Below are positions 9,384 to 57,852 of a stretch of 64,000 nucleotides of DNA, in pieces. The position numbers and the translations under genes were made by a program. This DNA is from Candidatus Gastranaerophilales bacterium Zag_111 (lineage in GTDB: Bacteria > Cyanobacteriota > Vampirovibrionia > Gastranaerophilales > Gastranaerophilaceae). A model generated the notes under the pieces. It saw only the letters and a program-made list of their open reading frames with translations, did not search any database and was not told the origin of the DNA. Location of the stretch: NCBI GenBank assembly GCA_001899395.1, contig MOYD01000024.1, forward strand, positions 436-64,435. Direction: 5' to 3'. Within the stretch, counting starts at the first letter, position 1, and every line of letters starts with the position of its first letter.

Positions 9384-9457
9384 TGGAAGGTCGTCTAAAG
9401 GTAGGACACGGGACTTTGACTCCTGCAATAATAGTTCGAGTCTATTTCTTCCAGCCA
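9384..9457 (+). tRNA. tRNA-Gln (anticodon UUG), CCA encoded
   Basis: Hand-folded cloverleaf: acceptor TGGAAGG/TCTTCCA, D GTCT/GGAC, anticodon stem CGGGA/TCCTG, loop CTTTGAC, T AATAG-TTCGAGT-CTATT. U1-A72 and G73 are typical of tRNA-Gln. Confidence 0.85.
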
Positions 9458-9485
9458 TTATACCCAATGAATAGGAGGATATACT

Positions 9486-9878
9486 ATGAAAATTTCAAGA
9501 CAAGAGATTGAAGATGTTGTTAAGCAGTATAAGCTCTCGGGTCAAAGTAAAATGCCAAGTGATGAAATTGTCTATAAGGCGGACCATGGATTTTACAAAT
9601 ATGAACTCTATAATCTTGATGGCGAGATTGCGGCATTTATCTTACCTCGACTCTATGAATATAGAAAGTCTTGTTCTCAATGGATTCCTTCTGATATTCT
9701 TGAGTCTTGTGATGGTAATGAAGCTGAAGCATATAAGAAATGGAAGAAAATTCTTAAGAAAATGATTGTAGCTTTTTATTATGTTGCAAAAGGCTCAACG
9801 TGTAGTGAAGAAGAGGACAAAAAAGTAGAAAAAGGACTTAGATTATTCTCAAAATATCTTACGTCCCTTTGGACTTAA
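9486..9878 (+). CDS. Hypothetical protein
   Basis: RBS AGGAGG. Intact 130-aa ORF. Confidence 0.6.
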   Translation: MKISRQEIEDVVKQYKLSGQSKMPSDEIVYKADHGFYKYELYNLDGEIAAFILPRLYEYRKSCSQWIPSDILESCDGNEAEAYKKWKKILKKMIVAFYYVAKGSTCSEEEDKKVEKGLRLFSKYLTSLWT

Positions 9879-9879
9879 A

Positions 9880-10138
9880 GATATAAATGCGTGTAGAGAT
9901 AGCACGAAGTAATCAATTAGATTGCGGCTTAATTGACGAATCGAAAGACGTAGCAGTTAAGTTTTCAGTATGAAGGTCTTAGCTCTGGGAAATAGTTGAG
10001 GTCGAAAGACGGGAGTAAAGATTGGACTGAAACGGGGTTGCCTGACGACCTGCGTAGCTCAACCGCTAGACAATAGAAACAGGCTTGGCTGCTTTGCGGC
10101 GACAGAGTTCTCCTATCTCACAAAGGGAGTTCTAATAT
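9880..10138 (+). other. ORF-less structured spacer (possible small RNA) upstream of tRNA-Asn
   Basis: No ORF. Repeated TCGAAAGACG hairpin motifs. GGTTG..CAACC stem. Confidence 0.25.
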
Positions 10139-10210
10139 TCTTCTTTAGCTCAGCGGCAGAGCACCCATCTGTTAAACGGGAGGTCGTTGGTTCGAGTCCA
10201 ACAAGAAGAA
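10139..10210 (+). tRNA. tRNA-Asn (anticodon GUU)
   Basis: Acceptor TCTTCTT/AAGAAGA, D GCTC/GAGC, anticodon loop CTGTTAA (one A-C mismatch in the stem), T GTTGG-TTCGAGT-CCAAC. Confidence 0.8.
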
Positions 10211-10216
10211 TTATAT

Positions 10217-10537
10217 GGGGTCGTATTAGGTTCGACAGCATAATGGAAAATATTAAGCAAGCAAACCTTTTAACAAGAAATTGCACTAGTAATTTTGCAA
10301 TGGCTGCCTAAGTGCAGCCCGTCAATTATAAGTTCCTGTTGCGGCTTATAAGTTGGCGTGGATTAGCAACAGAAAAACTCAGGACAATTGTAATGCGTCT
10401 TGTTTCACCTCCTAAATTACATGGCGGCTCAATAGTTTTGTTCATTTTGTAGAGCTACTATATTAAAATGAAATAAGCTTGTAGAAAGATATTGGAAGTT
10501 ATGTTGGACAGGAGTGCAATTCTCCTCGACTCCACCA
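10217..10537 (+). ncRNA. ssrA: tmRNA (SsrA)
   Basis: 5' GGGGTCGTATTAGGTTCGAC pairs with 3' CGACTCCACCA and includes the G3-U70 Ala identity pair. T-arm AGGAG-TGCAATT-CTCCT. Internal tag frame ..ANLLTRNCTSNFAMAA-TAA. Confidence 0.85.
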
Positions 10538-10564
10538 AGACAGAGGCAGTTAATTGCCTCATAT

Positions 10565-10638
10565 TCTCCGTAAGCTTTAAGGTGAAGCACCGACCTTTTA
10601 AGTCGGAGAAGAGAGATCGTTACTCTCACGGAGAACCA
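10565..10638 (+). tRNA. tRNA-Lys (anticodon UUU), CCA encoded
   Basis: Acceptor TCTCCGT/ACGGAGA, D GCTT/AAGC, anticodon stem CCGAC/GTCGG, loop CTTTTAA. The T-loop ATCGTTA is atypical. Confidence 0.7.
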
Positions 10639-10721
10639 TTTAGACACTCGCAGCCAATTTTATATTAATTTTATTTTGAAAATTATTACAAGTGTCTAGT
10701 CAATTAAAAAGGAGGTAGACA

Positions 10722-12032: not shown

Positions 12033-13145
12033 GAAAGATATTAAGAGGATTTAAAACAAATATTTATCCAACAAAAGAGCAAGAAGATATTCTTTTTGCA
12101 TATTGTGAATACGCTCATAAAATGAGAAATTTTTTAGTAGAGAAATTCAAAGATAATCTACCTAAAGTGGGACCTTATGGAATTATTGGGTACAATGAGA
12201 AAAAATTATTAGAAGAATTTAGTGAGAGAGAAATTCCTAGAATTCCCTTACCGCATCTTTTATTAAAAGGAGTAATAAGAGGATATGCAACTTCCGTTAG
12301 AAAAACATATAAGAAGCTTGCACGCCCACCCAAATTTCACAAATATATTGCAAACAAACAGTCTTTTTATATTCCAAAAGATTATTCTATCATATCTAAT
12401 ACAATAGTTTTACCTCTCAAGAGAAACACTTGATCCAAAAATATCAAGAATTAAAGCTGAAAGAGTTTATCTTGAAAAATTTAGTATTACTCAAGTAAAA
12501 GAACCTAGATATACTTATCAAAATGGGAAATGGTATATTTCAGGTTGCTATGAGGATGGTATTACTCCACAAAAGAAAGAAACAACTTTTGTAGGTCTTG
12601 ATTGGGGGATTAAAAATTTTATGACAACCTCATAGGGGGAGTTGATAAATTATCCAGATAGTGTAATTAGAGAATATGAACGGATTAAAAAATTAATATC
12701 TATTAGAGATAAAAAAGATAAAGGTTCAAATAATTACCTAAAAATTGATAATAAAATAAATGAAGCTTGGGAAAGATTTGATAACTTAAAAAGAGATTTT
12801 ATTGAGCAGATTACAAATAAATTATGTAAAAATTATAATATTGCAGTTGAAGACTTAACTGATGCAAAAATATTAAAATCAACTAAAAATAGGAGACGTT
12901 TAAGACTTATAGCACCAAGATATCTTTTTATTGAAAAAGCAAAATGGAAATGTCAAAAATATGGTACGCAATTTGTTGAAGTTAATCCAGCATATACTTC
13001 TAGAACTTGCAGTAAATGTGGAAAAGTTAAAGAGAATCTATCATTACAAGATAGAATTTTTAAATGTGAATGTGGATTTGAATTAGACCGAGATATAAAT
13101 GCGGCAATTAATATTGCTGCAAGGGGAGCCTGTGAAGCCCTTTAA
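12029..13145 (+). CDS. tnpB: TnpB-like RNA-guided nuclease (IS200/IS605 OrfB family), frameshifted with one in-frame TAG, no TnpA
   Basis: GFKTNIYPTKEQ..PPKFHK. RuvC-I VGLDWGIKN, RuvC-II IAVEDL, zinc ribbon CSKCG..CECG, RuvC-III DRDINAAINIA. +1 frame change near 12425. TAG at 12633. Confidence 0.8.
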
Positions 13146-19287: not shown

Positions 19288-19758
19288 ATGACTAGAAAAG
19301 TGATATTCGACTTGGATGGCACCGTTTATGACCTCTATAATGTTGAGGACTGGCTAGGTAAAATTCAAAGAGAAGAAGCTGGAGTATTTACTGAAGGTGA
19401 TATTCTTTTTGAGCTTGACGAATTCTATTCTACAATTGAAGAAATGCTAATGAATGGAATTGAATTCGGTGTAATTACTTGGCTGCCTGCTGGAGCTTCA
19501 AAAGAATATGAGGAAGTCTGCCGCAAGGAGAAACTAGAATTTATTAACAAATATCTCCCCTTTGTAAGTGAAGTGTCAATTTGTTCCTATGGCATTCCTA
19601 AGCAAAACCTAATTAAAAAGCGGGCGGCGGCAATGTATTTGCTAGACGATAATAAGGATGTCTGTGAGATGTTCAATCAGGCAAAGAATTGTGTAGGGAT
19701 TAATGTTGAGGAAGGAAATCTTGTTCAAGTCCTGCGAAACCTAATGAAATTTGAATGA
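19288..19758 (+). CDS. HAD-superfamily phosphatase (nucleotidase-like)
   Basis: N-terminal FDLDGTVYD (DxDGT) motif. Confidence 0.6.
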   Translation: MTRKVIFDLDGTVYDLYNVEDWLGKIQREEAGVFTEGDILFELDEFYSTIEEMLMNGIEFGVITWLPAGASKEYEEVCRKEKLEFINKYLPFVSEVSICSYGIPKQNLIKKRAAAMYLLDDNKDVCEMFNQAKNCVGINVEEGNLVQVLRNLMKFE

Positions 19759-29196: not shown

Positions 29197-29227
29197 TGTA
29201 CAACTGGTAAATTTTACCAGTAGTTGG

Positions 29228-29272
29228 GAGTTAGTTAAGACTAACTAGAGGGAGTTAGTTAAGACTAACTAG
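29228..29272. repeat. Two tandem 24-bp units, each with the inverted repeat GTTAG-N6-CTAAC
   Basis: GAGTTAGTTAAGACTAACTAG occurs twice. Confidence 0.85.
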
Positions 29273-29440
29273 TGCCTAGACTCCGCCGCCCACCCCTCCC
29301 CTGCTGTCTTCGAGATTAATTATATTATACCATAGAGTCAAGCATTTGTCAATAGGCAGATTGCACAAAGATCGCGGCGTGTATTTGTATAGTTTGCACA
29401 AAACCTAGTAAACCTATAGGAATAGTAGGAATTTGGTCCG

Positions 29441-29565
29441 CGAGTTAGTCACCCCTAACTGTACGCCACAGAAGGACAGTTAGTCAATCCTAACTGTACG
29501 TCATTCGTGGACAGTTAGTCTCGTTTAACTGTACGCCGCAGAAGGACAGTTAGTCACCACTAACA
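29441..29565. repeat. 3.5 tandem 35-bp units carrying the AGTTAGTC-N-CTAACT operator-like palindrome
   Basis: CAGTTAGTCANNCCTAACTGTACGCC.CAGAAGGA repeated with a 35-bp period. Confidence 0.85.
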
Positions 29566-29706
29566 CATGAACACTTGAACATATATTCATATGAACAATT
29601 GAACATATGAACAACCATTCAAATGTTAGTTAGTCAATCCTAACTGAAATCCAAAAAATGGGTGACATTTCTGTCACCCGAATTGTTACGATTTTATGAA
29701 TATTTT

Positions 29707-29787
29707 TTAATCTTTAATCTGATAACCCTTTACAAGTCGATTGCCATTTTTTACTTCTGTTTCCGTCAAATTGCCATCTTTTACCAT
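29707..29787 (-). pseudogene. Remnant or mini-ORF matching the C-terminus of the winged-helix paralogs
   Basis: Encodes MVKDGNLTETEVKNGNRLVKGYQIKD (compare ..VEVKNGNRLINGYKIKE). Has its own promoter at 29828 and a GGGTGACA/TGTCACCC terminator. Confidence 0.4.
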
Positions 29788-29827
29788 TGTTTTCAAAATT
29801 GCCGTTTCCCTTTACCTTACATATATT

Positions 29828-29856
29828 ATTATATCAAATTTTTTGGGATTTGTCAA
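29828..29856 (-). promoter_or_regulatory. Promoter cassette (leftward)
   Basis: Reverse complement reads TTGACA, 17 nt, TATAAT. Confidence 0.65.
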
Positions 29857-29896
29857 GTAAACTTTTTATTAACCACCCACCCGCCCTATTCATATT

Positions 29897-30280
29897 TTAT
29901 TCACTTTTTGCTTTGGTAATTTTTGCCGCCTTTGCTCTTGCCTTTGCTTCTTTTTCCGCTTGCTTGCTTGCTTGCTCTTCTGCATAGATATCCGCTTCTG
30001 TCAGTCGTTCAAATGGTTCGTAGATTTTTCCCTTTGGTGTTACTCGTGTATCAAAGTCCTTTGCTACTGGTGCAGATGTAAAGCATACTTCTCCGCTTGT
30101 ACCGTCTGCAAGAGTTCTAAACCCTACACATACCGCAATTTCATTTGATCCCGTGATGCTTACATTTTCCTCCCCGTATTCCATGCAAGCGGCTTTGTAA
30201 AGCAATTCAAAGCCTATTTTTCTAACTTCGTTCTTTACTGCTGTAGCGGTCTTGAGTTCATCAAAATTTCTTGTATTCAT
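29897..30280 (-). CDS. GEENV-family paralog with an Ala/Lys-rich tail
   Basis: About 80% identical to 32383..32766. YGEENVSITGSNEIAV..APVAKDFD..PKGKIYEPFERLTEAD. Confidence 0.7.
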   Translation of the reverse strand: MNTRNFDELKTATAVKNEVRKIGFELLYKAACMEYGEENVSITGSNEIAVCVGFRTLADGTSGEVCFTSAPVAKDFDTRVTPKGKIYEPFERLTEADIYAEEQASKQAEKEAKARAKAAKITKAKSE

Positions 30281-30343
30281 AAATATCTACTTTCTAGGAA
30301 ACTTTTTTAGGGTGTTTCCTGTTTCCCTTTACCTTACTCTATT

Positions 30344-30372
30344 ATTATATCAAATTTTTTGGAGTTTGTCAA
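30344..30372 (-). promoter_or_regulatory. Promoter cassette (leftward)
   Basis: Reverse complement reads TTGACA, 17 nt, TATAAT. Confidence 0.7.
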
Positions 30373-30380
30373 GCTTTCAA

Positions 30381-30421
30381 TTGTAAACTTTTTATTAACC
30401 ACCCGCCCGCCCCGTTTACAA
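30381..30421 (-). terminator. Terminator/insulator-like hairpin with a G-tract loop
   Basis: TTGTAAAC..GTTTACAA stem. On the transcribed strand the loop reads GGGGCGGGCGGGTGG. Lies between a stop codon and the next promoter. Confidence 0.45.
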
Positions 30422-31111
30422 TTATTCTAAACTTTCTTCATACTTTTTTAACATTCTCCATGGTTGTTTTTGGTCAAATCGTGTTTCATTTTTTTTTAAT
30501 GCTTTTAGCAAAATCTGGTATTCTATCATAACATCTGCTAAGCCTGTATGTTCTTCTGTAAAGTCCATGTCACCAAATAGATATTTATATACCGTTTCGG
30601 CGTTTGTCTTGTAGTTTCCTTTTTCTGTAATAAACCCGTTAATTTTACACCATTCTAAATAATTTGGCGTGAGAAGTCTTGCGTATGTGATACCCGTCCA
30701 AATGTCACATATTTGAATTTCTAATTCATCATATAAACCACCTAAAAGCCGTTTCAATGCACTATTATCAAAAACTGCATTGTATGCAAACATTTTTTTG
30801 ACATTGTACCGCTGTAAAGACTTCTTAAAAACACGATAGAAACCATTGATAGTTATTTTCTGGTATTTTTTGCCGTTGTCCATCAAAATTTCTTGTATGT
30901 TCTTTTTTGTCATCATGCAAGCGACTTTCATTTCTGGAATTGCATTTTTTTCTAACACGTCAATCAAGTTTTCAAAAATGCACTCACAAAATGCAATCGA
31001 ACGCTTCTCGTAAATTCTATCGTTTCGATCTGCTACAATATAACCAATGTTATAAGGTCGCTTGTTACTCATTCCCTCAACGTCAAGAATAATAAATTTT
31101 TCTGTAAACAT
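30422..31111 (-). CDS. DEDD-family 3'-5' exonuclease (DnaQ/RNase T-like)
   Basis: ExoI FIILDVEG, ExoII AYNAVFDNSAL, ExoIII EEHTGLADV. Start placed at MFTEKF. Confidence 0.7.
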   Translation of the reverse strand: MFTEKFIILDVEGMSNKRPYNIGYIVADRNDRIYEKRSIAFCECIFENLIDVLEKNAIPEMKVACMMTKKNIQEILMDNGKKYQKITINGFYRVFKKSLQRYNVKKMFAYNAVFDNSALKRLLGGLYDELEIQICDIWTGITYARLLTPNYLEWCKINGFITEKGNYKTNAETVYKYLFGDMDFTEEHTGLADVMIEYQILLKALKKNETRFDQKQPWRMLKKYEESLE

Positions 31112-31209
31112 ATTTTTTCCTTTCTTACAAGCCCGTTTCAATTTCCTATTGTTTCCGCTTGTTTGAACACTCTTTTTTTCGGCGGTGTCTTTGCCCTTAG
31201 TACTCTTTA

Positions 31210-31238
31210 ATTATATCACATTTGATCGCCGTTGTCAA
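31210..31238 (-). promoter_or_regulatory. Promoter cassette (leftward)
   Basis: Reverse complement reads TTGACA, 17 nt, TATAAT. Confidence 0.65.
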
Positions 31239-31314
31239 TACCCTTGAGTATAAAAAGTTTTCAACAATTTAGATTGTTTTTTGTGCAATATGCACAAGTG
31301 GAAATTTTAAGAAT

Positions 31315-31382
31315 GTTTCACGTGAAACACTCATTTCTTGAGTAAATAGCGAGAATTTTTTAAGAAATGTTTCACGTGAAAC
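31315..31382. promoter_or_regulatory. Two copies of the 14-bp perfect palindrome GTTTCACGTGAAAC
   Basis: At 31315-31328 and 31369-31382. A third copy is at 35881-35894. TTGTGCAATATGCACAA palindrome at 31281. Confidence 0.7.
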
Positions 31383-31504
31383 ACTATTGAACAATTGAAC
31401 ATATATTCATATGAACAATTGAACATATGAACAATTGTTCAAGTGTTAGTTTATCCTAACTCCTACTAAACTAGTAGGAATTATAGGAGTTATTCAAGAA
31501 TAAC

Positions 31505-31675
31505 TCCATTTACAATTTATTCACATTTATTCATATTCTATCCATATTTTTATTTTTACAATTTATTCATATTTGTTCATAGTTTATCCATATTTTTGTG
31601 TTCACAATTTATCTACAATTGTTAATACTTTATTCATATTTTTCTATTAACAATTTATTCATAGTTAGTCTAGAC
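31505..31675. repeat. AT-rich tandem repeat (~45-bp unit, about 3.5 copies)
   Basis: ACAATTTATTCAT..TCCATATTTTT units. Confidence 0.7.
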
Positions 31676-31885
31676 TAACTCAACCTTTCACCCCCCCATT
31701 ATATTATACACCATTTAACTGAATTTGTCAATGGTCAAACTATACAAAAATTGGCGGCGAAAGAATAAAATTTTTGTGCAACTTGACGATGTCCGGTCAG
31801 AAGTTAGTCTAGACTAACTCCAAATCAAAAAAGAGTGGTAAAATTTACCACCCTCTTTGTTCATATTTGATTCACATTCAATTCA

Positions 31886-32227
31886 TTATTCTTTAATCTT
31901 GTATCCATTGATCAAACGATTTCCATTCTTTACCTCGACAATTTCAACCCGTCCATTTTTTGCCAACTGTTTCATAATTGCAGTAGTTTTTTGCGGTGTG
32001 ATGTTCTGAGTTTGTCCAATTTGTGAAGCCGTGTAAATGGTGTCTGTTTCCATTTGTTCAATAATTTGTTCACCGATTTTCAAATTTTCCTGTTGTGTCT
32101 TGCTTAACGTTGTACGCCGTTTTTCGTTGCGTTCGTCCAGTTTTTGGATCTGTTGCGATGCATACGCCGTGATTTCCTCGTTGATGTTTGTGTTCACAAT
32201 TACTTCAAAAAATTCACGATTTGTCAT
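31886..32227 (-). CDS. Putative winged-helix DNA-binding protein (paralog of 20667..20996)
   Basis: MTNREFF..EEITAYA..QIQKLDE..EVKNGNRLINGY. Confidence 0.65.
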   Translation of the reverse strand: MTNREFFEVIVNTNINEEITAYASQQIQKLDERNEKRRTTLSKTQQENLKIGEQIIEQMETDTIYTASQIGQTQNITPQKTTAIMKQLAKNGRVEIVEVKNGNRLINGYKIKE

Positions 32228-32291
32228 ATTATACCTACTTTCTAGAAATCGTTTTTAGGGTGATTTCTTATTCCCTTTACCTTACATATTT

Positions 32292-32320
32292 ATTATATCA
32301 TATTCTTTTCTATTTGTCAA
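32292..32320 (-). promoter_or_regulatory. Promoter cassette (leftward)
   Basis: Reverse complement reads TTGACA, 17 nt, TATAAT. Confidence 0.7.
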
Positions 32321-32340
32321 GCCTTTTATCTGATTTTTAT

Positions 32341-32381
32341 TTGTAAACTTTTTATTAACCACCCGCCCGCCCTGTTTACAA
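32341..32381 (-). terminator. Terminator/insulator-like hairpin with a G-tract loop (second copy)
   Basis: Near-identical to 30381..30421. Confidence 0.45.
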
Positions 32382-32382
32382 A

Positions 32383-32766
32383 TTATTCACTTTTTGCCTT
32401 GGCAATTTTTGCTTCTTTTGCTTTTGCTTTTGACTCCTTTTCTGCTTGTTTTGTCGCTTGATCTTCGGCGAAAATGTCTGCTTCGGTCAGTCGTTCAAAT
32501 GGTTCAAAAATTTTGCCTTTTGGTGTTACACGTCTATCAAAATTTTTTGCAACTGGTGCAGATGTAAAGCAAACTTCACCTTCTGTACCGTCTGAAAGTG
32601 TACGATAACCAATGCAAACAGCGACTTCATTAGAACCCGTGATTGAAACGTTTTCTTCGCCGTATTCCATGCAAGCGGCTTTATACAAGAGATTGAAGCC
32701 GATTTTTCTGACTTCGTTTTTTACTGCTGTAGCGGTCTTGAACTCGTCAAAATTTTTCATAGTCAT
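32383..32766 (-). CDS. GEENV-family paralog with an Ala/Lys-rich tail
   Basis: See 29897..30280. Confidence 0.7.
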   Translation of the reverse strand: MTMKNFDEFKTATAVKNEVRKIGFNLLYKAACMEYGEENVSITGSNEVAVCIGYRTLSDGTEGEVCFTSAPVAKNFDRRVTPKGKIFEPFERLTEADIFAEDQATKQAEKESKAKAKEAKIAKAKSE

Positions 32767-32830
32767 AAATACTCACTTTCTGAAAATCGTTTTTAGGGTG
32801 ATTTTCTTGTTCCTTTTACCTTACAATATT

Positions 32831-32859
32831 ATTATATCACATTTCGCCGCCGTTGTCAA
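32831..32859 (-). promoter_or_regulatory. Promoter cassette (leftward)
   Basis: Reverse complement reads TTGACA, 17 nt, TATAAT. Confidence 0.7.
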
Positions 32860-33001
32860 GCGATTTTTTGAAATTCGGCATATTGCACAAAATGTTTGAG
32901 TATGTTGAAAACTTTTGTGCAAGTTGCGCAAGGCGGCCGGACTTATGCAATTTATACAAAAATGAACGCTTAAATTTGAAAATATTTGTATAATTTGACG
33001 A

Positions 33002-33030
33002 TTGACATTCTTCTTCTTTTGTAGTATAAT
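33002..33030 (+). promoter_or_regulatory. Promoter cassette (rightward)
   Basis: TTGACA, 17 nt, TAGTATAAT. Only ~80 nt of ORF-less sequence before the next promoter. Confidence 0.65.
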
Positions 33031-33118
33031 ATATATAGAACGAAACGCAAGAGGAAAGCCAAGAGAACGGCATAAAACAAATTGGAAAGTAGTTCAAAAA
33101 ATGTTTACAAATAAATAC

Positions 33119-33147
33119 TTGACAAATGCTCTTGAATGTGATATAAT
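33119..33147 (+). promoter_or_regulatory. Promoter cassette
   Basis: TTGACA, 17 nt, TGATATAAT. Confidence 0.7.
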
Positions 33148-33197
33148 AAGAGTATAGAAAAGAGAAAGAAACTCTTAAAAACTAGAAAGGCAAAATT

Positions 33198-33506
33198 ATG
33201 AAAAACGTAAATTTGGAAATGGTAGAACTTAATGAAAAAGAACTTGACGCAATGAAGAAAGAACTTTTAACAATTGACGAAACACTTCAAGCAATTCAAG
33301 AACGCTTGACAACATCAGAATATAATGAAAGATGGTTTGAATATGCGGAAAAACTTTCACTTCAAATTATGGAAAAATACGGTGTAAAATATCCCTTGAT
33401 TATGGATGTTTCGGGATATGGTAACTATAATGCAATTGAAATTCTTTTCTTAAATGGTGAAAAAGGTTTTGACGGAATTCAAGTTGATTGCGGCGATATG
33501 GAATAA
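33198..33506 (+). CDS. Hypothetical protein
   Basis: Intact 102-aa ORF after the promoter. Confidence 0.55.
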   Translation: MKNVNLEMVELNEKELDAMKKELLTIDETLQAIQERLTTSEYNERWFEYAEKLSLQIMEKYGVKYPLIMDVSGYGNYNAIEILFLNGEKGFDGIQVDCGDME

Positions 33507-33524
33507 TAGAAAGGACTTGATAAA

Positions 33525-33677
33525 ATGAAAGCAATAAAAAATTTAATTTTTTTGGTTAGTATTTTGTTTATGGTTTGGATCGTTGCAAGTTTTATAAATG
33601 TAAATCTGCATAACCTGACAGATCAAAATTTTGCAACGTGGAATTTGTTCACAATGTTCACAAATTGTTTACAATAA
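33525..33677 (+). CDS. Small membrane protein (50 aa)
   Basis: One TM helix (LIFLVSILFMVWIVASF). Confidence 0.35.
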   Translation: MKAIKNLIFLVSILFMVWIVASFINVNLHNLTDQNFATWNLFTMFTNCLQ

Positions 33678-33693
33678 AAATTTTGGAAAGTAC

Positions 33694-33722
33694 TTGACAA
33701 CTGAAAAGAAATGTGTTATAAT
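33694..33722 (+). promoter_or_regulatory. Promoter cassette
   Basis: TTGACA, 17 nt, TGTTATAAT. Confidence 0.7.
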
Positions 33723-33778
33723 AAATACAGAAATTGAGGAGCGGAAAACCTCACTAAAACCGCAGAAAGGTTTATATT

Positions 33779-33991
33779 ATGACTGTTAGAAATATTTTAA
33801 GTATGTGTAAAAATGATATTGATTATCTCAATGTTACGGTTGTAAATTCTGAAGGCGAAAGAAGTGAAATTATGAGTTTCCCTTTACTTGAATACATCGG
33901 TACAGAATGGGCAAATCGTGAAGTAATTAGTTTTGAAATTAAAACTAATGAAGAATTAGATTTTACAGAAATTTATTTTGAAGTTAGATAA
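33779..33991 (+). CDS. Hypothetical protein
   Basis: Intact 70-aa ORF. Confidence 0.5.
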   Translation: MTVRNILSMCKNDIDYLNVTVVNSEGERSEIMSFPLLEYIGTEWANREVISFEIKTNEELDFTEIYFEVR

Positions 33992-34094
33992 AATATGAAC
34001 GGCTAGTAACTTTGGCAAAAGCTGGAGTGAACGCCTTGTGCATATTGTACAAATTGAGACGCTTAAATTTGAAAATGTTTGTGCAACTTTTATA

Positions 34095-34123
34095 TTGACA
34101 TTTGGTTTCTGTTGTGGTATAAT
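34095..34123 (+). promoter_or_regulatory. Promoter cassette
   Basis: TTGACA, 17 nt, TGGTATAAT. Confidence 0.7.
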
Positions 34124-34171
34124 AATTATAGAAGTTAAGGAAAAAACTTAAAAACCAGAAAGGCAAGTATT

Positions 34172-34387
34172 ATGTTAGTAAAAGAATTGATTAAAAAGCA
34201 GGAAGGCAAGTTTGATAGTTTGGAAATTATTAGACCAAATGGAGACGTCTATTTTACTATGGTGGTACCCTATGAAAGAAGCGATGCTTTTCAAGAGAAT
34301 AAAGACTTGAAAATTTTTAGTTATAGTTTTGTACCATTTGCAAGCGGTAACGGGTACAGATTGAGTATTAAAACAGAAAGAGTATAA
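34172..34387 (+). CDS. Hypothetical protein
   Basis: Intact 71-aa ORF. Confidence 0.5.
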   Translation: MLVKELIKKQEGKFDSLEIIRPNGDVYFTMVVPYERSDAFQENKDLKIFSYSFVPFASGNGYRLSIKTERV

Positions 34388-34856
34388 AACGGGTGCAAGA
34401 GAAATAAAAGTGAATAATAAAAGGGTTAGCGGGTGGGCGAAAATTTGAGAAAAGTTTTTCTGTTGAGACGGGTTCAGAAATTTTTCTAAAAGATTTTATA
34501 TATTACGGGTTTAGAAAAATTTTTGGGCTAAAGTTTTTAGATGTAAATAAATAATAAAATGAGCTAAAGTTTTTAAGAATAAAGCTATATTTCTAGCAAA
34601 GAGGTATCATATTTTCAAAGTGGTTCTTCTGCTTGATGGGGTGATAAAAATTTTTAGCAAAAGTTTTTCTAAAAAGTTAAAGAATAAAAATGAGCAAAAG
34701 TTTTATATAGATAGATATAATACAGTTTAATATATATACATATGTATATTGGAAATATGTCAAGATTTAGTATAGAGCAGGACAGCAGAAATTAACTGAA
34801 ACTTTGTTATAATTAAATAACTTCAATAGAATGAGCTGAAGTTTTAGCTCCAAAAT

Positions 34857-35001
34857 TATAGCTTCAATATAGCTCAAAATTATAGCTTCAATATAGCTCA
34901 AAACTATAGCTCAAAATTATAGCTTCAATATAGCTCAAAACTATAGCTCAAAACTATAGCTCAAAACTATAGCTCAAAACTATAGCTCAAAATTATAGCT
35001 T
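34857..35001. repeat. Tandem 12/13-bp iterons TATAGCTCAAAAY / TATAGCTTCAA (about 12 copies)
   Basis: Head-to-tail units with no spacers, flanked by AT-rich AAAGTTTTT tracts (34440-34720). Confidence 0.9.
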
Positions 35002-35026
35002 TAATTCTGTTGGACAGCGACAACAA

Positions 35027-35060
35027 CAGAAGAGCGATTTCACCTCCTACCGCTCTTCTG
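35027..35060 (-). terminator. Hairpin terminator downstream of the leftward 35229 gene
   Basis: CAGAAGAGCG-14nt-CGCTCTTCTG. Confidence 0.55.
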
Positions 35061-35070
35061 TTCTACTGTC

Positions 35071-35229
35071 TTATTTATTTTCTACCGTGATACCCTCAAT
35101 TTCAAGTGCTGCTTCGTTTGCCTGATCTCTATCGTCCCAAGCACCGTAGAACCAAAGTTCACCTTCAATTTCTCTTGCTACAATGTACTTTCTATTCTTT
35201 GCATATTCTGCCATGTTATTGATTTTCAT
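35071..35229 (-). CDS. Hypothetical small protein (52 aa)
   Basis: RBS AAAGGAAG. MKINNMAEYAKNRKYIVARE... Confidence 0.45.
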   Translation of the reverse strand: MKINNMAEYAKNRKYIVAREIEGELWFYGAWDDRDQANEAALEIEGITVENK

Positions 35230-35313
35230 ATTTCAATCTTCCTTTCATTATTGAAATTGAACCCGAACGGGATTTTTTCATCCCGTCCTTCCTGTTCAAT
35301 TTTCTTGGTGGTT

Positions 35314-35529
35314 TCATTCTGTCACTTCGTAGAATACTGTTGCATTCTCAAACTTAATTTGCCATTCTCTACCGTTTTCGTCCGTCCAATCGCCTGCTTG
35401 TGTATGTGGTACGTTGTCTTTCTGCTCGTATCTTCTGATTAGGCTTTCAAACGCTTCACCCTTGTTACCTCTCATTCGTTCAAGGGTTTCAATTGTACCT
35501 ACCTTTTCGACTCTCGTACAACTGTTCAA
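35314..35529 (-). CDS. Hypothetical protein
   Basis: 71-aa ORF. Start uncertain. Confidence 0.4.
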   Translation of the reverse strand: MNSCTRVEKVGTIETLERMRGNKGEAFESLIRRYEQKDNVPHTQAGDWTDENGREWQIKFENATVFYEVTE

Positions 35530-35750
35530 GAGTGCCTCTCGTTGCTTGTTATTTGGTCGGAATCTCCATTTACAGCGACCGCCTTTTTTGGTGCTGTCAC
35601 GGTCGCATTTTAGCGACGCTTGAAAAGCTTCATTGTCGTAGGTTGTAAAGCAAGCCCATATTTCACCCCCTTCTTGATGCCTATGATTAGGTTTTGCGTT
35701 GCGGTTGTTTTTCTGTATGCCATGAAGCTAGTCAACATTTTATTCATTTT

Positions 35751-35975
35751 TCAATCCTCCATGGTGTCCAGTCCGATGTAGCCGACTTCCAGACTCCAGC
35801 GACAGAAATCTTCTAAATTTTCCATAATTTCCCATTCGCTGTAGTTTTCAAGTGTATAGTTTCCGTACCGCTCAAGGGCTGTTTCACGTGAAACATTTTC
35901 GAGGTTGATGGCAACCGCATTAAAGCGGTGACTTGTAGCGTTTTCGATGGTTTCAATTGCATTGTAAACAGTCAT
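35751..35975 (-). CDS. Hypothetical acidic protein
   Basis: Intact 74-aa ORF downstream of the 36071 promoter. Confidence 0.5.
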   Translation of the reverse strand: MTVYNAIETIENATSHRFNAVAINLENVSRETALERYGNYTLENYSEWEIMENLEDFCRWSLEVGYIGLDTMED

Positions 35976-36070
35976 GATATAACCTTTCTACGCCGTTTGG
36001 CGTTTCACTGTTTGCCGGTGCGATAACCCTTATTTCGGAGAATGGTTTTTAACCCGTCCTTCTATATAAT

Positions 36071-36098
36071 ATTATACTCCTTTTTTTTAGTTTGTCAA
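36071..36098 (-). promoter_or_regulatory. Promoter cassette (leftward)
   Basis: Reverse complement reads TTGACA, 16 nt, TATAAT. Confidence 0.65.
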
Positions 36099-36267
36099 GG
36101 ATTTTTTCAAAAAAAAATACACAAACCTTTTCAACTTTACAAGCCTGTTTTTGTGCAAAATGACGAACGCCTATTTTCAACCATTTTCTGTCATCTGTTA
36201 ACATTTCAGTCATAATTTCTGGTGTCATGGTAAAATATGTCATCTGTTAACATTTCAGTCATAATTT

Positions 36268-37325
36268 GAACTTTTCAACTTTTCAACGTTGAAAACTTTT
36301 CAACTTTTCAACAATTCTGTTAAAAATTTAACAATCGCATTGCATCTGTTGAAAAGTTGAAAACTATGTTAAAAAGTTGAAAACTATGTTGAAAAGTTGA
36401 AATGTTGAAAGCTTTACATTCAATTGTTGAAAAGTTGAAAGCTTTACATTCAATTGTTGAAAAGTTGAAAACTATTAACACTCAACTGTTGAAAAGTTGA
36501 AACTGTTGAAAACTTTCAACAATCCTGTTAAAAATTTAACAATCGCATCCCACAAAAAGATTGAATTTATTCATAGTTTGTTCATAATTTGCTCCCCCAA
36601 TTGTGGAAAACTTTTAACTTTTCAACAATTAAACTTTTCCACTTTTCAACGTTAAAAATTTTCAACTCTTCAACTGTTGAATTGTTGAAAACTTTCCACA
36701 ATTTGTTGAAAACTTTCAACTTTTCAACAAGTTAGTTATGACTAACTCCTCGGCCCTTCCTCGGCAGAACATACGAAATTGTTGAAAAGTTGAAAACTAT
36801 GTTGAAACTGTTGAAAACTTTCAATTTTCCACTTTTCAACTGTTGAAAACTTATTCATAGTTTGTTCACAATTTCCTCGGCAATTGTTGAAAAGTTGAAA
36901 ACTATGTTGAAACTGTTGAAAACTTTCAACTTTTCAACAAGTTAGTCATGACTAACTCCCTGGCCCGCCACCCTTGAACAATTGAAATGTTGAAAAGTTG
37001 AAAACTTATTCATAGTTTGTTCACAATTTCCTCGGCAATTGTTGAAAAGTTGAAAAGTTGAGACGCAATTGTTGAAAAGTTGAAAACTCATTCATAAATC
37101 ATTCAATTTGTTAATAGTTTGTTCATAATTTCCTCGACAATTGTTGAAAACTATGTTGAAATGTTGAAAACTATTAACAATCTGAGTGTTGAAAAGTTGA
37201 AAACTATGTTGAAAAGTTGAGACGGACTGTTGAAAACTTTCAACAACGCACAGTTTTCAACAGTTGAAAAGTTGAAATGTTGAAAGTTTTCCACAAATTG
37301 TTGAAAGTTTTCAACTTTTCCACAG
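36268..37325. repeat. ~1.1-kb array of GTTGAAAA / TTTTCAAC octamers in both orientations
   Basis: Dozens of copies, often as GTTGAAAAGTTGAAAAC. Higher-order ~120-180-bp units. Interspersed AGTTAGT.ATGACTAACT palindromes at 36731 and 36941. Confidence 0.9.
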
Positions 37326-37491
37326 GGGGTGGAAAAATTTCTAATTTTGTTCATAATTTGTTCATAAAAAGGCCGTACCAACAAATCTTCAGAACTCATT
37401 TTTTAAATTTAAATATCAATCATTGGTACTAACAAATCTTCAGAACTCATTTTTAAATTTAAATATCAATTATCAGTACTAACAAATCTTC

Positions 37492-37851
37492 TTAAAAAAT
37501 CTCACTTACCCTATCATAATCTTCTCTATTTGCATATACTCCTAAAAATATTATTCCATTTATATTTTCCGTTAATTCTATTTTAGACATTTCCCATACA
37601 TTTACTTCTAAATCTAATTCTTCTGCTTCATCTATTGTTAATAAACTTACTTTTGATTCTACAATATCATCTTTATCATAGATTAGATATAAACATAGGT
37701 GAGTTATATTGTTTTCTCTTAACTTAGGCAAAAAATCTTTTAATTTAAGTCCATTTCTTTTTAAAAAATTATAATATTCCATATAATCTTCTATTCCTAT
37801 AAGTGATTGTCTTTTTATTCCATTTTCTGGTCCATAACCTAAAATTTCCAT
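37492..37851 (-). CDS. Hypothetical protein
   Basis: RBS AAGGAGG. Intact 119-aa ORF. Confidence 0.6.
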   Translation of the reverse strand: MEILGYGPENGIKRQSLIGIEDYMEYYNFLKRNGLKLKDFLPKLRENNITHLCLYLIYDKDDIVESKVSLLTIDEAEELDLEVNVWEMSKIELTENINGIIFLGVYANREDYDRVSEIF

Positions 37852-40910: not shown

Positions 40911-43310
40911 ATGATATTAATGCCCGAAGCTATCGCCGCCGCAACAACGAGATTATTCAAAACAAGAGGAAAAACATTTTATAGAAATGGAATTCAATTG
41001 GAAAAAGGTGCAGTAATTAATGAGAATAGAATAAGATATAATTTAGATTTGTATGAATATTATTTTGATTTATTCAGCCAATATCCAGATATATTTATTG
41101 AATTGATTACTCCAACTGATTCAAAATTTAAACTTAAATTTTTCTAGGTTATTTTTCTAAGAGCTTGTCTACGTTATGGTCGTGTATCAGCTACTATGCC
41201 CCGTGCGGCTGGCAAGTCTTTTATTTGTATTTTAGCACTTTATTTGATTTGTATTTTTAGACCTAGGTCACACGTCAAGAAGGGCGCACTTATATTGTGA
41301 AGTGTAAGTGAAAAGATTAATTAAAAGCTGGGAAATTCTAATACTATTGATACTCGTTGCGCCGCCGCAATTTACTTAAGGCATTTTCATTGTGCAAATG
41401 GCGGCGAAGAGTTGTGAAAACAGAAACAAATTAATAGTTGGCTCATGGTTAAATCCTAAAAGCTGTGATAATGAATAATCAGCACCAAAAAGATTAAAAG
41501 AATCTTGGTTCAACGACTATTCCCTTGAGGAAGTAGGTAATACCGAAAAATTAATCGTCTTAGTAATAAGAATTGATATAGTCTAAAAGCTTTTTATGTT
41601 CACCTGGTCGAAATCAGGGCGTTAAAATTGCAACAGAAAAAATTAAACAACTATTTAATATTTTTCCTTTGTTAAAAAATGAATTAGTGGGAAATGGTAA
41701 TTTTTCGAATGATTATGTTAAGTTGACATTTAGAAATGGCTCATTATTCGATGTAATGACGCCATTAAACTCCACTCGTGGTAATCGTGCTACGTGTGGT
41801 ATTATAGATGAACATCGTTAGATAGCGATGTAAAAACTGCCTAAATTGCGGGAACGCCCTTAGAGCTTTAATAACTAAACAATTATAGTGATATAATTGC
41901 GGCAAGGTATAACGGCTTTGGTATAGTAATATAATTAAAGATTGGGTAATCAAATGCAGCAAATCTTCTCTTGAGAAGAATGTTCAGAGACTATGTAGTA
42001 AGACTTCGGTCTGAAAAAGGCAGCATATTTTTATATGATGATATAGTCCAATCCCTAAATAAATATGTCGAAAGACAGGGTTCTAAATGGATCACAACGC
42101 AGACGATATCAATGAGATCATTCTGCCTTTACTCAACGTTGACCGCCCTATGGTCAATGGAGACATAAATGAGAATGAACCTCAACAGGTTCAATTCTGG
42201 ATTTCGTCAGCGGGAGATAAAAATACATATAGTTATGATAAGACAATTGAATTATTTGAACAATAGATAATCTAGCCAAGTAAAGTGTTTTGCTTTGGAA
42301 TGGATTATAGAATTCCAATTATTTCAGGATTATTAACACCAGCATACTTGAATGAAATTAAATTGTCACCGACCTTTAATGAAATAAGCTTTGCAAAAGA
42401 ATATATGTCCCGATTTACTGGTGGCTCACAAGATGCTTGGTTTGATTTCGAGAAACTGGATTAGAATAGAACATTGATTAATCCTGAGACTCATGAGAAC
42501 CTTAAACCTGGCATCAACGCATACTATGTCATTTCAGTGGATGTGGCTCGCATAGGATGTTAGACGGTTGCCACTGTACTCAAGGTATTTCCTGATATAG
42601 AAAATGGATATAGAATTAATTTGGTAAACATATACGTACTCGGTAAAACGGAAGAGGAAAAAATCTTTGACAGATAGGTTGCAGAGCTTAAGTACTTGAT
42701 AGAGCAATTCAACCCTAAGGTCGTGATCATAGATATAAATGGCATCGGAATTTCCTTTGCAGATGCAATGATTAAAGAGACTTTTGACGAAAAATTTCAA
42801 GTAATGCGCCCAGCTTACGGCTTTAATAATAGAGAGGAATATTTACCTCTACAACCTCGTGGCTGTGAGAAGATTCTTTATGGAATTAAAGCAAATGCGC
42901 AACTTAATAGCGATATGCACTCTGCTTTATATTCAAAAGTCTATTCTGGCAAGCTTAAATTTTTAATTTCAGAAAGTGATGCAAAAGTTAAACTTCTTGC
43001 AACTAAAAAAGGGCAAAGAATGAGTCCTGAGGATAAGAATAAACGCCTATTACCTCATGAAATTACCTCTATTTTAATTAATGAAATTATGAATTTAAAA
43101 CTCAAGCCAACAGGCAATGCAAATCAGATTGCTGTTGAACAAATTAATGAACGGACATTAAAAGACAAGTTCTCTGCACTGGAGATGGGGATTTATTGGA
43201 TAGTACAAGAGGAAAACACTTTAATGTCTCGCCGCCGCAATAGAGGTTTAGGTGGTAAAAAAAGAACCTTAGTATTTTCCGGTAGAGGAGGTGGAGGTGA
43301 TAAAAGATGA
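40911..43310 (+). CDS. terL: Terminase large subunit, three exons (40911..41275, 41599..41818, 42090..43310), 6 in-frame TAG
   Basis: Walker A MPRAAGKS (exon 1), Walker B GIIDEH (exon 2), nuclease-domain-like exon 3. Frames are restored exactly by the two predicted introns. Confidence 0.8.
41276..41598 (+). ncRNA. Group I self-splicing intron (terL intron 1, ORF-less)
   Basis: Core GTTCAACGACTATTCCC..GGAAGTAGG..GATATAGTC is like the T4 td intron. Predicted P1 ACGT/GTGT and P10 TTCAC/GTGAA. Terminal G at 41598 (41589 is an alternative). Confidence 0.7.
41819..42089 (+). ncRNA. Group I self-splicing intron (terL intron 2, ORF-less)
   Basis: 7-bp P1 ACATCGT/GCGATGT with U-G at the splice site. 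Core GTTCAGAGACTATGTAG..GATGATATAGTCC is like the Tetrahymena P7 region. Terminal G at 42089. Confidence 0.75.
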
Positions 43311-44893
43311 CAAAAGATAAAAACGAAATGTCAACAGAAGAACTTCTTAAATTTCAGCGAATTGAAACTTTTAAAAATGAAATTAAATCAATGATAGCAA
43401 CGAGTAAAGAAGCTCTCGTAAAAACAGACAATCGTGAAGCAAAAAATCGCTATCGCTGCCACTATACAAAGGAAGATATTAGAGATATTGTAGCAGAGGG
43501 AGATGCTGTTGCTCGTGCGGAATTATCAAAATATTTCTTTTCTATAAGCGGACTTTATAAAAGAATTGTTTTGCACTATGCAACTTTCTTAACTTATTCT
43601 TGGCTTCTTGTCCCTCATATTAAAAATTAGCTGAAGGACAAGTTAGATGATAAAAAGAATATGAAAGTTTACTACGATGCCGCCGATTTTGCATCGAATT
43701 TTGATATTGAAAGAAAATGTTCTTTATTTGCAAAGGATGTTTTAGTTCAAGGCGGCTGTTATGGAATTATACATGATAATGGGGACAATATTGTAATACA
43801 AGATTTGCCTTTTGAATATTGTCGTAGCAGATTTAAGAATTCACAAGATGTTGATATTGTTGAGTTTGATATGCGATTTTTTGATTCAATATCAGACGCA
43901 GATCTTCGTGCCCAAATTTTAAAAACATATCCAAAATGTGTTCAAAAAGGATATACTAGTTTTAAGAGTGGCCGAGCATCTAGTCCTTGGATTTATTTAC
44001 CAGCAGAAATTGGAATTTACTTCACATTATTTGAGGAACGTCCTTTCTTTTTGGACTTAATTCCTTTAATTGACGATTTAGAGGATTATAAGCAAATTGA
44101 TAAGGATAGGAATTTACTTTCCCTAAAGCGAATTTTAACTCAGAAAGTTCCAACTGATGGAATGAATCTTGTCTTTGAGCCTGAAGAAGCGGCTGAAATG
44201 CATGAAGGTGTTCTTGAAATGCTCGCTAACAATCCTGATGTTGATGTCGTTACTTCATATAATGATATTGACCTTTTGGATTTAAGTAGTGATGCAGATG
44301 AGACAACTGAAGTTACAGATGCGCAACAACTAATTTACGATTCTGCGGGCGTATCAAAAGAACTTTTTAGTGCTACAACTGATACAGGTCTTACTTATAG
44401 CTTAAATAACGACCTGTCAATGATGATGGTCCTAGGACAAAGATTTTCAAATTTTTTCACAGCATTGATTAATAATAAATTTGCTACAAGAAAATTAAAG
44501 TTTAAATTACTAATTTTACCAATTAGTTTTTATAATAAAGATGATTACACTTCTAAGGCTAAGGATTTGGCGGCGTTTGGATATAGCTTCTTAACGCCTA
44601 TTCTATCAACTGGTATTGACCAAACTAACTTAGCTGACCTTAAGACTCTTGAAAATGAAGTCTTGAATTTGGACGAAGTATTAACTCCTTTACAATCTGC
44701 ATATACACAATCTGGTAAAACTAATGCAGTAACTGCTGCGGCGGCGAAGTCAGCGGAGGAATCAACAGAGGAGAAGGATACAGAGGAATCTGAAGAAAAG
44801 ACTGAAGAAGAATCTAAGGAAGAAGAATCAAAGGATAATGGAGGTGAAGATGAAAATGGAGAACAAGATAACGGATCAAATGCTAAATCTTGA
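43307..44893 (+). CDS. Portal protein (by position and size), 1 in-frame TAG, acidic C-terminal tail
   Basis: ORFs 43307..43630 and 43661..44893 share a frame, joined via TAG 43628. 528 aa. Directly after terL. Confidence 0.6.
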
Positions 44894-51490: not shown

Positions 51491-51516
51491 AAATTTAATA
51501 AAGGAGGTTGATGATT

Positions 51517-55565: not shown

Positions 55566-55668
55566 TAGATATAAAATAAGGTAAAATGGTAAGTTGCAGC
55601 CATTGGCGATCTAATGGTCCAATGGCTGCTTTTACTTATCATAATTAAATACGGAGGTGAATGGAATA

Positions 55669-57837: not shown

Positions 57838-57852
57838 GGGAGGTGACGTTAG

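Follow-up and report, generated by a model that had tools for sequence, protein, structure and literature searches.

A one-piece tmRNA gene without pseudoknot PK1 in an uncultivated, TAG-recoded tailed phage

The 64-kb stretch of DNA analysed here (the window; part of contig MOYD01000024.1, 67,969 bp in all) carries at positions 10217–10537 of the forward strand a one-piece transfer-messenger RNA (tmRNA) gene, ssrA, of 321 nt. A full-length match to the Rfam model, the features of the tRNA-like domain, a tag reading frame with its stop codon in the usual position and the pseudoknots PK2–PK4 place it in the tmRNA family; pseudoknot PK1 is absent. The gene is a true ssrA borne by a phage, accessory to a large and uncultivated tailed gut phage that reads TAG as sense. 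We consider it probable that its product works as a tmRNA which relies on the alanyl-tRNA synthetase (AlaRS), SmpB and EF-Tu of the host, adds a host-type degradation tag and boosts the capacity for ribosome rescue.

Identity and architecture of a tmRNA without PK1

The tmRNA covariance model of Rfam (RF00023) matches 10217–10537 (+) over its whole length (model positions 1–374 of 374) with 94.3 bits and E = 1.9e-35, the gathering score being 47, and these are exactly the coordinates at which an earlier note, made from the letters of the window, had placed a one-piece tmRNA. The parts named in that note, an acceptor stem with a G3-U70 pair, a T-arm, an encoded CCA and a tag frame ending NFAMAA-TAA, can each be read in the sequence. 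The acceptor stem is formed by GGGGUCG (10217–10223) and CGACUCC, the latter followed by the discriminator A and the encoded CCA (10527–10537 together, with ACCA at 10534–10537); the G3·U70 alanine identity pair corresponds to G10219·U10531. The T-arm (AGGAG-UGCAAUU-CUCCU, 10510–10526) consists of a 5-bp stem (10510–10514/10522–10526) and a 7-nt loop, and stacks on the acceptor stem; there is no anticodon arm. Position 55 of the T-loop is G, as opposed to U in the Rfam consensus. A reading of G55 as a rare phage-specific oddity, based on 0 of 27 in a first sample, was given up when a pattern scan showed that many tmRNAs of Caulobacteraceae, Patescibacteria, cyanobacteria and gut Bacillota have a UGC T-loop, those of gut Bacillota with scores of 90–182 bits. 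Apart from PK1, each defining feature of the one-piece family that was tested is present; the gene is thus complete, as the earlier note had it, with respect to the model span and PK2–PK4, but not with respect to PK1. Its detection also depends on the tool. The covariance model finds the gene, whereas ARAGORN, proposed as an equivalent check, calls no tmRNA at 10217–10537 at default settings and, at relaxed settings, returns a wrong 'permuted' model that borrows the neighbouring tRNA-Asn, although the tag frame is read identically.

A full secondary-structure model comprising 87 pairs was built in window coordinates. Helix 2 (10236–10262 and 10477–10506) accounts for 21 of these pairs, in the blocks H2a (10236–10244/10498–10506), H2b (10249–10254/10488–10493) and H2d (GCAAGC, 10257–10262, with GCUUGU, 10477–10482), H2a and H2b being separated on the 5' strand by a GGAA internal loop. 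The layout of H2d presumably resembles the GCAUGC/GCAUGU of E. coli. The helix 5 (H5) hairpin, GGCUGC-CUAAGU-GCAGCC (10302–10319; pairs 10302–10307/10314–10319), holds the UAA stop in its loop; the segment made up of the tag and H5 folds with z = −2.63, and the change C10318U retains a G·U pair. PK2–PK4 can be drawn with stems of 6–13 bp. PK2 (10320–10372) is a 13-bp hairpin (10320–10332/10345–10358) whose loop CUGUUGC (10336–10342) pairs with GCAACAG (10366–10372); PK3 (10380–10421) has the stem CAGGAC/GUCUUG (10380–10385/10397–10402) and a loop UGUAAU (10389–10394) paired with AUUACA (10416–10421); and PK4 (10426–10472) combines a stem at 10426–10434/10448–10456 with pairing of the loop UUCAUUU (10441–10447) to AAAUGAA (10466–10472). 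At the usual place of PK1 there is a 13-nt single-stranded linker, AAACCUUUUAACA (10263–10275), the 3' end of which is the frame-setting U-5 A-4 motif (UAACA). The linker region forms only a weak hairpin (−4.5 kcal/mol, z = −0.54) that is no better than that of shuffled sequence.

This architecture is supported by comparison with close relatives. Relatives that are ~5% diverged occur in four public runs from a single study, and contigs of three of these runs (X1–X3) cover the tmRNA. The three variant tmRNA sequences, rebuilt from the listed contig differences, are ~95% identical to the window. In the four-sequence alignment, the 87 modelled pairs amount to 318 pair cells, every one of which is a standard pair, compared with 38–45% when partners are slid by 1–3 columns. 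Four pairs have been altered on both sides (G10383–C10399 to A–U and A10384–U10398 to G–C in the PK3 stem, and two in the T-stem), and ten further pairs on one side only, through G·U. Pairing in PK3 is kept through two one-sided changes beside the two both-sided ones, and in PK4 through three one-sided changes. All pairs of helix 2 are retained, as are 7 of 7 in the acceptor stem, where U5–A has become U5·G in X2 and X3. In the same two relatives the T-stem has been remodelled via paired substitutions and insertions, with the UGC start of the loop kept; the stem (10510–10526) apparently has 6 bp there, not 5, and this would make a 13-bp acceptor/T stack. The sole exception to the keeping of pairs is the terminal PK2 pair C10336–G10372, lost in X3 (G>U) in a cell that the aligner set aside. 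Covariation from four related sequences is modest evidence, with all changes in one direction apart from this terminal pair of X3. Only one of the 29 variable sites lies within the 5' 96 nt, which contain the 5' strands of the acceptor stem and helix 2, the linker and the tag (Fisher p = 4.5e-4), so that constraint is strongest in the coding half of the gene. The tag frame itself is invariant in X1–X3.

The tag frame, AGA AAU UGC ACU AGU AAU UUU GCA AUG GCU GCC UAA (10276–10311, +), corresponds to the peptide (A)RNCTSNFAMAA. Its UAA stop (10309–10311) sits in the H5 loop, the canonical position of a tmRNA stop, and this fixes the frame. The resume codon is likely to be the AGA at 10276, as judged from its surroundings: in UAACA-AGA there is a U at −5 and an A at −4, in keeping with the rule that U-5/A-4 set the tmRNA frame in E. 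coli, where A86 is dominant (PMC2481249). The spacing is alike in Bacillota tmRNAs, with UAACU-GGA in an uncultured Bacilli genome from rabbit gut (L243) and UAAAC-GCN in an uncultured Eubacteriales metagenome-assembled genome (L023, MGBC119074), in Clostridiales SIG413 (L164) and in L181. Two other resume sites were considered and rejected. The GCA at 10283, suggested by the Rfam alignment, opens a frame that crosses H5 and PK2 and stops 20 codons on, and UAGUA-AUU at 10292 crosses the same elements out of frame with the H5-loop stop; neither frame has a tag-like end.

The suggestion that the tag, in departing from the usual ALAA ending, might be a phage-specific degron did not survive comparison with bacteria. 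A scan of species-representative genomes for the pattern N(Y/F)AMAA-stop gave at least 120 matches; at least 93 of the 120 matches listed carry tmRNA end motifs, and 7 of 7 checked with Rfam are tmRNAs. Most of the matches listed belong to Bacteroidota (GESNYAMAA, GENNFAMAA and similar tags) and two are Clostridia-type. The idea of an unusual degron was dropped because AMAA-ending tags are ordinary in Bacteroidota and Clostridia. The phage tag moreover aligns codon for codon with AKNRTNNFAMAA, the Clostridia-type tag of L023, and the AMAA ending is shared by L164. It follows that the tag is host-type and not specific to the phage.

PK1 is the most conserved of the tmRNA pseudoknots and is nearly universal in nature. 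It is typical of tmRNAs but not strictly defining, and both natural and engineered exceptions exist. The natural tmRNAs of Oenococcus oeni and of a Pavlova plastid lack helix 4, one of the PK1 helices (PMC1168896), and in E. coli PK1 can be exchanged for a hairpin or for single-stranded RNA with tagging kept (PMC4236655). The engineered forms remain able to tag. Like all these RNAs, the phage RNA runs from helix 2d to the tag with no PK1 in between. It differs from those of O. oeni and the Pavlova plastid in being without either PK1 helix, with only 13 nt left, and its own tagging activity is predicted.

An RNA in which PK1 is replaced by a 13-nt linker might alternatively be a decoy, which would be charged and bind SmpB and ribosomes without translation of the tag, and so compete with the host tmRNA. 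Such a case is provided by mycobacteriophage DS6A, whose tmRNA-like RNA has no coding sequence and inhibits the host tmRNA (cited in PMC11915505). The DS6A RNA and the present one are both reduced phage-borne members of the tmRNA family, but the former is without a tag frame, whereas in the latter a conserved tag frame is retained along with three pseudoknots. A decoy is decidedly improbable in our view: the full tag frame, the H5-loop stop and the U-5/A-4 motif have been kept, the tag half is the best conserved (1 of 29 variable sites), and PK2–PK4, needless for a purely tRNA-like decoy, are upheld by compensatory change. That single-stranded RNA can stand in for the PK1 of E. coli (PMC4236655) also argues for a tmRNA that tags.

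RNA abundance, distribution and neighbouring genes

In a bat-gut metagenome RNA-Seq run (X25), the tmRNA of a relative is present at ~120x word depth over 10213–10483, compared with 0–6x over the surrounding coding DNA; these are assembler depths from one run, with RNA ends unmapped, and they concern a relative ~95% identical instead of this phage. The depth pattern fits an abundant stable RNA better than DNA carry-over. RNA-seq, named in the earlier note as a means of verification, thus suggests expression in a relative and not in the phage of the window itself.

A candidate promoter for the RNA cluster lies ~1.4 kb upstream of the tmRNA, at 8811–8839 (+); it is a near-consensus sigma-70-type sequence (TTGACT, 17 nt, TG-TATAAT) with 11 of 12 matches, proposed from the consensus match alone. 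Between 8800 and 10800 nothing resembling a terminator was detected. ARAGORN places three tRNA genes in the same stable-RNA cluster, all on the forward strand: tRNA-Gln(UUG) at 9384–9457, which is not a suppressor, tRNA-Asn(GUU) at 10138–10211, 5 nt upstream of the tmRNA, and tRNA-Lys(UUU) at 10565–10638, 27 nt downstream. The position of the tmRNA between tRNA-Asn and tRNA-Lys, as given in the earlier note, is thereby verified. The tRNA-Lys has a non-canonical T-loop (AUCGUUA) and, of the tRNAs in the window, scores lowest against the tRNA model, with 49 bits.

In X25 the non-coding stretch 9895–10134 (+) equals the tmRNA in abundance (126x over 9895–10083). It matches no Rfam family, its fold has no advantage over those of shuffled versions (z = −0.78), and it may act as a leader or constitute a stable RNA of its own. 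Other gene-free stretches are also abundant in this run, with 457x near 8963–9060, 55x at 9053–9272 and 66x at 2365–2518. No Rfam family was found in the abundant stretches 8815–9383, 9895–10134 and ~2365–2518, permissive E-values over 2100–10230 included, and they may represent new phage non-coding RNAs. Bacterial Y RNAs are usually located just upstream of Ro-like genes, and the 2365–2518 piece lies just upstream of a Ro/TROVE-like gene.

The tmRNA gene is not a fixed part of the lineage. X1–X3 and X25 have the tmRNA but lack tRNA-Asn, and X4, another close relative, lacks both. With the neighbouring RNA ligase as bait, 17 related loci were obtained (~41–53% protein identity), 12 of which were scanned for tmRNA; none was found in these 12 (ligases 46–52% identical), up to 10 kb around the ligase, where tRNAs are present, and one locus (L131) still has a tRNA-Lys downstream of the ligase, again with no tmRNA. 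The absence from X4 and from the 12 loci indicates that the gene is an accessory element of a tRNA cluster that varies in content, and that it has been mobile recently.

A patchy distribution, together with the reduced architecture and a model score above that of only 1 of 24 bacterial tmRNAs, would be expected of a passenger gene that was captured not long ago, is decaying and does nothing for the phage. This is very unlikely to be the case. No bacterial or viral sequence similar to the phage tmRNA beyond its last ~70 nt was found, and capture was thus not recent; a scan of species-representative genomes with its exact 5' pattern gave no match. Stem substitutions in three relatives keep pairing bar one terminal pair and include four both-sided changes, the tag half is under stronger constraint, and the RNA is highly abundant in a relative. 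The remnant of an attachment site, that is, a temperate phage's copy of the 3' end of a host ssrA, has also to be considered, as 115 of 120 viral contigs with the same 3'-end pattern have no detectable one-piece 5' partner, which fits fragments or permuted genes. The probability of this is negligible for the present gene, which is whole from G1 to CCA and not close to any bacterial tmRNA, and the full-length model match effectively rules out an attP fragment. This is also consistent with a scan of the + strand open reading frames (ORFs) of at least 85 aa with Pfam/PHROGs (− strand ORFs left out), in which no integrase was found, nor any SmpB, release factor or aminoacyl-tRNA synthetase.

The genes within 8 kb of the tmRNA suggest a more specific setting for its action. 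They encode a DUF2828/TROVE+VWA (Ro-like) protein (2526–3998), a GIY-YIG nuclease (5518–5826) and an RNA_lig_T4_1 (Rnl1-type) ligase (5965–7011), besides the tRNAs for Gln, Asn and Lys. In relatives (the L001, L004 and L133–L135 loci), KTI12/AAA_33+HD proteins, a combination which we take to resemble polynucleotide kinase-phosphatase, and a Thg1-like gene are found beside the ligase, and several unannotated RNAs of the block are abundant in X25. The tmRNA may accordingly belong to an RNA-damage or counter-defence island and rescue ribosomes when abortive-infection nucleases cut tRNAs and mRNAs. Such a role is compatible with a working tmRNA and would name the main source of stalling; we regard it as possible, though on balance unlikely, as the argument is one of guilt by association and relatives that share the ligase island do so without the tmRNA. 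In two of these relatives (L133 and L134) the Ro-like gene is interrupted by a LAGLIDADG-type ORF. A 'drum' RNA (RF02958, 49.9 bits) was found between two tRNA genes at 19349–19453 of L001, a related phage contig of 174 kb.

The TAG-recoded carrier and a possible link to recoding

The window carries a portal gene (43307–44893), a large-terminase-like gene, genes for five paralogous virion structural proteins and an endolysin, which bear out the assumption that it is phage DNA, as well as a gene for a sigma-like factor. The portal has hundreds of relatives at 64–77% identity, on metagenome contigs of up to ~194 kb. The assumption that a stop codon has been reassigned is equally confirmed: the phage reads TAG as sense. 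When TAG is treated in this way, stop-to-stop ORFs of at least 300 aa add up to 9,215 aa, compared with 5,466 aa when it counts as a stop. Profile matches run across in-frame TAGs in the sigma-like gene (14), the large-terminase-like gene (5) and a phrog_4051 gene (12), and the conserved N-terminal 107 residues of the portal lie upstream of an in-frame TAG at 43628. TAG is also avoided as a terminator, since the 34 standard-code ORFs of at least 100 aa in the early region end in TAA (21), TGA (12) and TAG (1). Glutamine is assumed as the amino acid at TAG, as in a code of type 15; the sole TAG for which homologues were compared is situated in a stretch that varies and contains indels. No suppressor tRNA (anticodon CUA) was found in the window, even with relaxed ARAGORN, or in the fetched stretches of relatives, most of the genome lying beyond these. 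Among GenBank phages, blastn of 9300–10700 gave matches to tRNA-Asn only and megablast of 43–63 kb gave only short intron-like matches, and no close relative was found in IMG/VR by the exact 3'-end pattern, the exact 5' pattern or two neighbouring proteins.

In a genome of this kind the tmRNA could serve recoding itself. Once a suppressor tRNA is active or RF1 is blocked, host and early mRNAs with a terminal UAG would be translated on to their 3' ends and ribosomes would accumulate there, which the phage tmRNA would clear while destroying the read-through products. The premise, already contained in the earlier note, that UAG read-through feeds tmRNA is sound in principle, because E. coli without RF1 depends in part on tmRNA tagging to resolve ribosomes at UAG, with effects on phage and plasmid propagation (PMC6207430). 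Among the papers listed on phage tmRNA and stop-codon recoding, no title or abstract links the two, and the idea is apparently untried. Several observations nevertheless make it unlikely here. The gene is dispensable in the lineage, as seen from X4, the 12 related loci and L131 with its tRNA-Lys. Phage tmRNAs are spread over many phage groups in surveys that are silent on recoding (PMC9004378, PMC7162821). TAG density in stop-to-stop ORFs is 12 in 6,323 codons in the first 26.4 kb, compared with 44 in 2,119 and 46 in 5,825 in two later blocks, and it is the TAG-poor early block that contains the tmRNA, preceded by a sigma-70-type promoter and away from the late genes; this also disagrees with the proposal that it acts late in infection. 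Finally, the tag is host-like, and neither a suppressor tRNA nor a release factor or SmpB was found in the window. A link to stop-codon recoding is a reasonable idea, for which the present locus gives no evidence. A more far-reaching version, in which the early, stable tmRNA is a functional recoding module that absorbs UAG run-off ribosomes and marks read-through products, with the PK1-less form and the Arg resume codon as phage-specific adaptations, appears quite unlikely; if it were true, tmRNAs missed by ARAGORN could be systematically under-counted in recoded phages.

The recoded genome shows further features. A papain-family (Peptidase_C1) domain at 1339–2139 extends over two ORFs of the same frame, with an in-frame TAA at 1729–1731 and TAGs at 1405 and 1492; this gene may be a pseudogene, or the TAA may be read through. 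For the methyltransferase that adjoins the tmRNA cluster no identical protein is on record, and its homologues, generic enzymes of the PglX-like type, offer no marker for the clade. Directly downstream of the methyltransferase gene is a TnpB/Cas12f-like ORF (OrfB_IS605 and TNB domains, 12279–13145), and two in-frame TAGs in its stop-to-stop frame suggest that this mobile-element gene has adapted to the recoded code. The five virion paralogues (phrog_2729, 51502–64000) have the N-terminal sequence MN(L/I)F..YGIKEVADV and the C-terminal motif GETY.R...TG.DQR in common, diverge strongly in the middle and, for the most part, contain several in-frame TAGs. Two tandem group I introns (54720–54995 and 55052–55343; Rfam 69.3 and 66.0 bits), with a mini-exon of ~56 nt between them, start at the 3' end of a 1081-codon virion structural gene (51502–54747), and short stretches similar to them are present in AM1-type genomes of Lactococcus phages and in the Yersinia phage phiR1-37. 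A block at ~29200–37500 with few ORFs holds TAGCTCAAAACTA 12 times at 34845–35000, iterons of the TGTTGAAAAGTTGAAAACTA type at 36.2–37.3 kb and AT-rich 46-nt repeats at 31508–31661. It is probably a replication-origin or regulatory region, and the repeats that fill it account for its poor coding density under any genetic code.

Relation to known tmRNAs and proposed role

One-piece tmRNAs of gut Bacillota (L164, L243 and L023) share with the phage gene the G3·U70 pair, ACCA, a long helix 2, UAA at −5 to −3 before the tag, the H5-loop stop, PK2–PK4 and an A-x-A-A tag end. In L164 the UGC T-loop and the AMAA ending occur together, and the acceptor stem and T-stem of L243 are identical to those of the phage tmRNA. 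The phage tmRNA is 321 nt long, compared with 322–450 nt for the 52 one-piece bacterial tmRNAs measured, and differs from them in being phage-encoded, in lacking PK1, in its probable Arg resume codon and in that no adjacent smpB was found. From these likenesses the gene looks Bacillota-derived or Bacillota-adapted. The host-like tag, T-loop and acceptor stem point to Bacillota and are a useful clue for host prediction; the host of the phage is probably a gut Bacillota bacterium.

Cluster C mycobacteriophages, among others, also carry tmRNAs. The class is established from huge phages (Al-Shayeb 2020, PMC7162821) and from many phage groups, amounting to ~2.3% of isolate genomes (Buchholz 2022, PMC9004378), and the roles proposed for it are the upkeep of the hijacked translation machinery or protein tagging (PMC7162821, PMC9004378). 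The tmRNAs of huge phages, OM43 phage Melnitz and pelagiphages are, like the present one, complete ssrA genes situated among tRNA genes on lytic-type genomes. They were found by ARAGORN, which misses 10217–10537; that of Melnitz is a two-piece form with a glutamine riboswitch, whereas the present gene is one-piece; and the available parts of these reports describe none as PK1-less or as coming from a TAG-recoded genome. What is new here is a PK1-less example, in an uncultivated TAG-recoded clade and invisible to ARAGORN, of a class that is already known. Since the phage surveys cited were ARAGORN-based and the covariance model easily finds a gene that ARAGORN misses, published frequencies of phage tmRNAs are probably underestimates.

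A mechanism consistent with these observations can be proposed. The tmRNA would be transcribed within the early-region stable-RNA cluster, with tRNA-Gln, the RNA of the non-coding stretch, tRNA-Asn and tRNA-Lys, and excised by the tRNA-processing enzymes of the host. We infer that host AlaRS would charge it with alanine via G3·U70, and that host SmpB and EF-Tu would bring it to ribosomes stuck on mRNAs that are broken or have no stop codon. Translation would then resume at the AGA at 10276, add (A)RNCTSNFAMAA in spite of the missing PK1 and end at the UAA at 10309, upon which the ribosome would be recycled. The tagged product, with its host-type A-M-A-A end, would presumably act as a degron substrate for host proteases such as ClpXP. 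The net effect would be more ribosome-rescue capacity in the infected cell, which may benefit the phage under any stress that stalls ribosomes, be it host shut-off, cleavage of mRNA and tRNA by defence nucleases or, possibly, TAG read-through.

A number of findings weigh against a working tmRNA and lower our confidence in it. At the position of PK1 only 4 nt of the gene stand opposite the 26 nt of the consensus in the Rfam alignment, and a gap of ~38 nt appears when the gene is aligned with bacterial tmRNAs; with PK1 missing and only 13 nt between H2d and the resume codon, messenger function is not guaranteed. The RF00023 score exceeds only one of those of the 24 bacterial tmRNAs scored (90.6–182 bits). 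The putative resume codon AGA encodes Arg, as opposed to the usual Ala or Gly, and, with no SmpB in the window, a fit with the SmpB of the host is assumed. The RNA evidence comes from contig depth in one run and from a relative, and the X25 contig ends at 10483, with variants at 10249, 10427 and 10450 that would break modelled pairs unless compensated by unseen changes. In X4, 161 other letters replace tRNA-Asn and the tmRNA.

The benefit that phages derive from tmRNAs is not established, and the present gene provides a well-supported example in which covariation, constraint on the tag and abundance at the RNA level come together. As a natural PK1-less tmRNA with its other parts under purifying selection, it agrees with mutational work on the dispensability of PK1 and represents a minimal natural scaffold.

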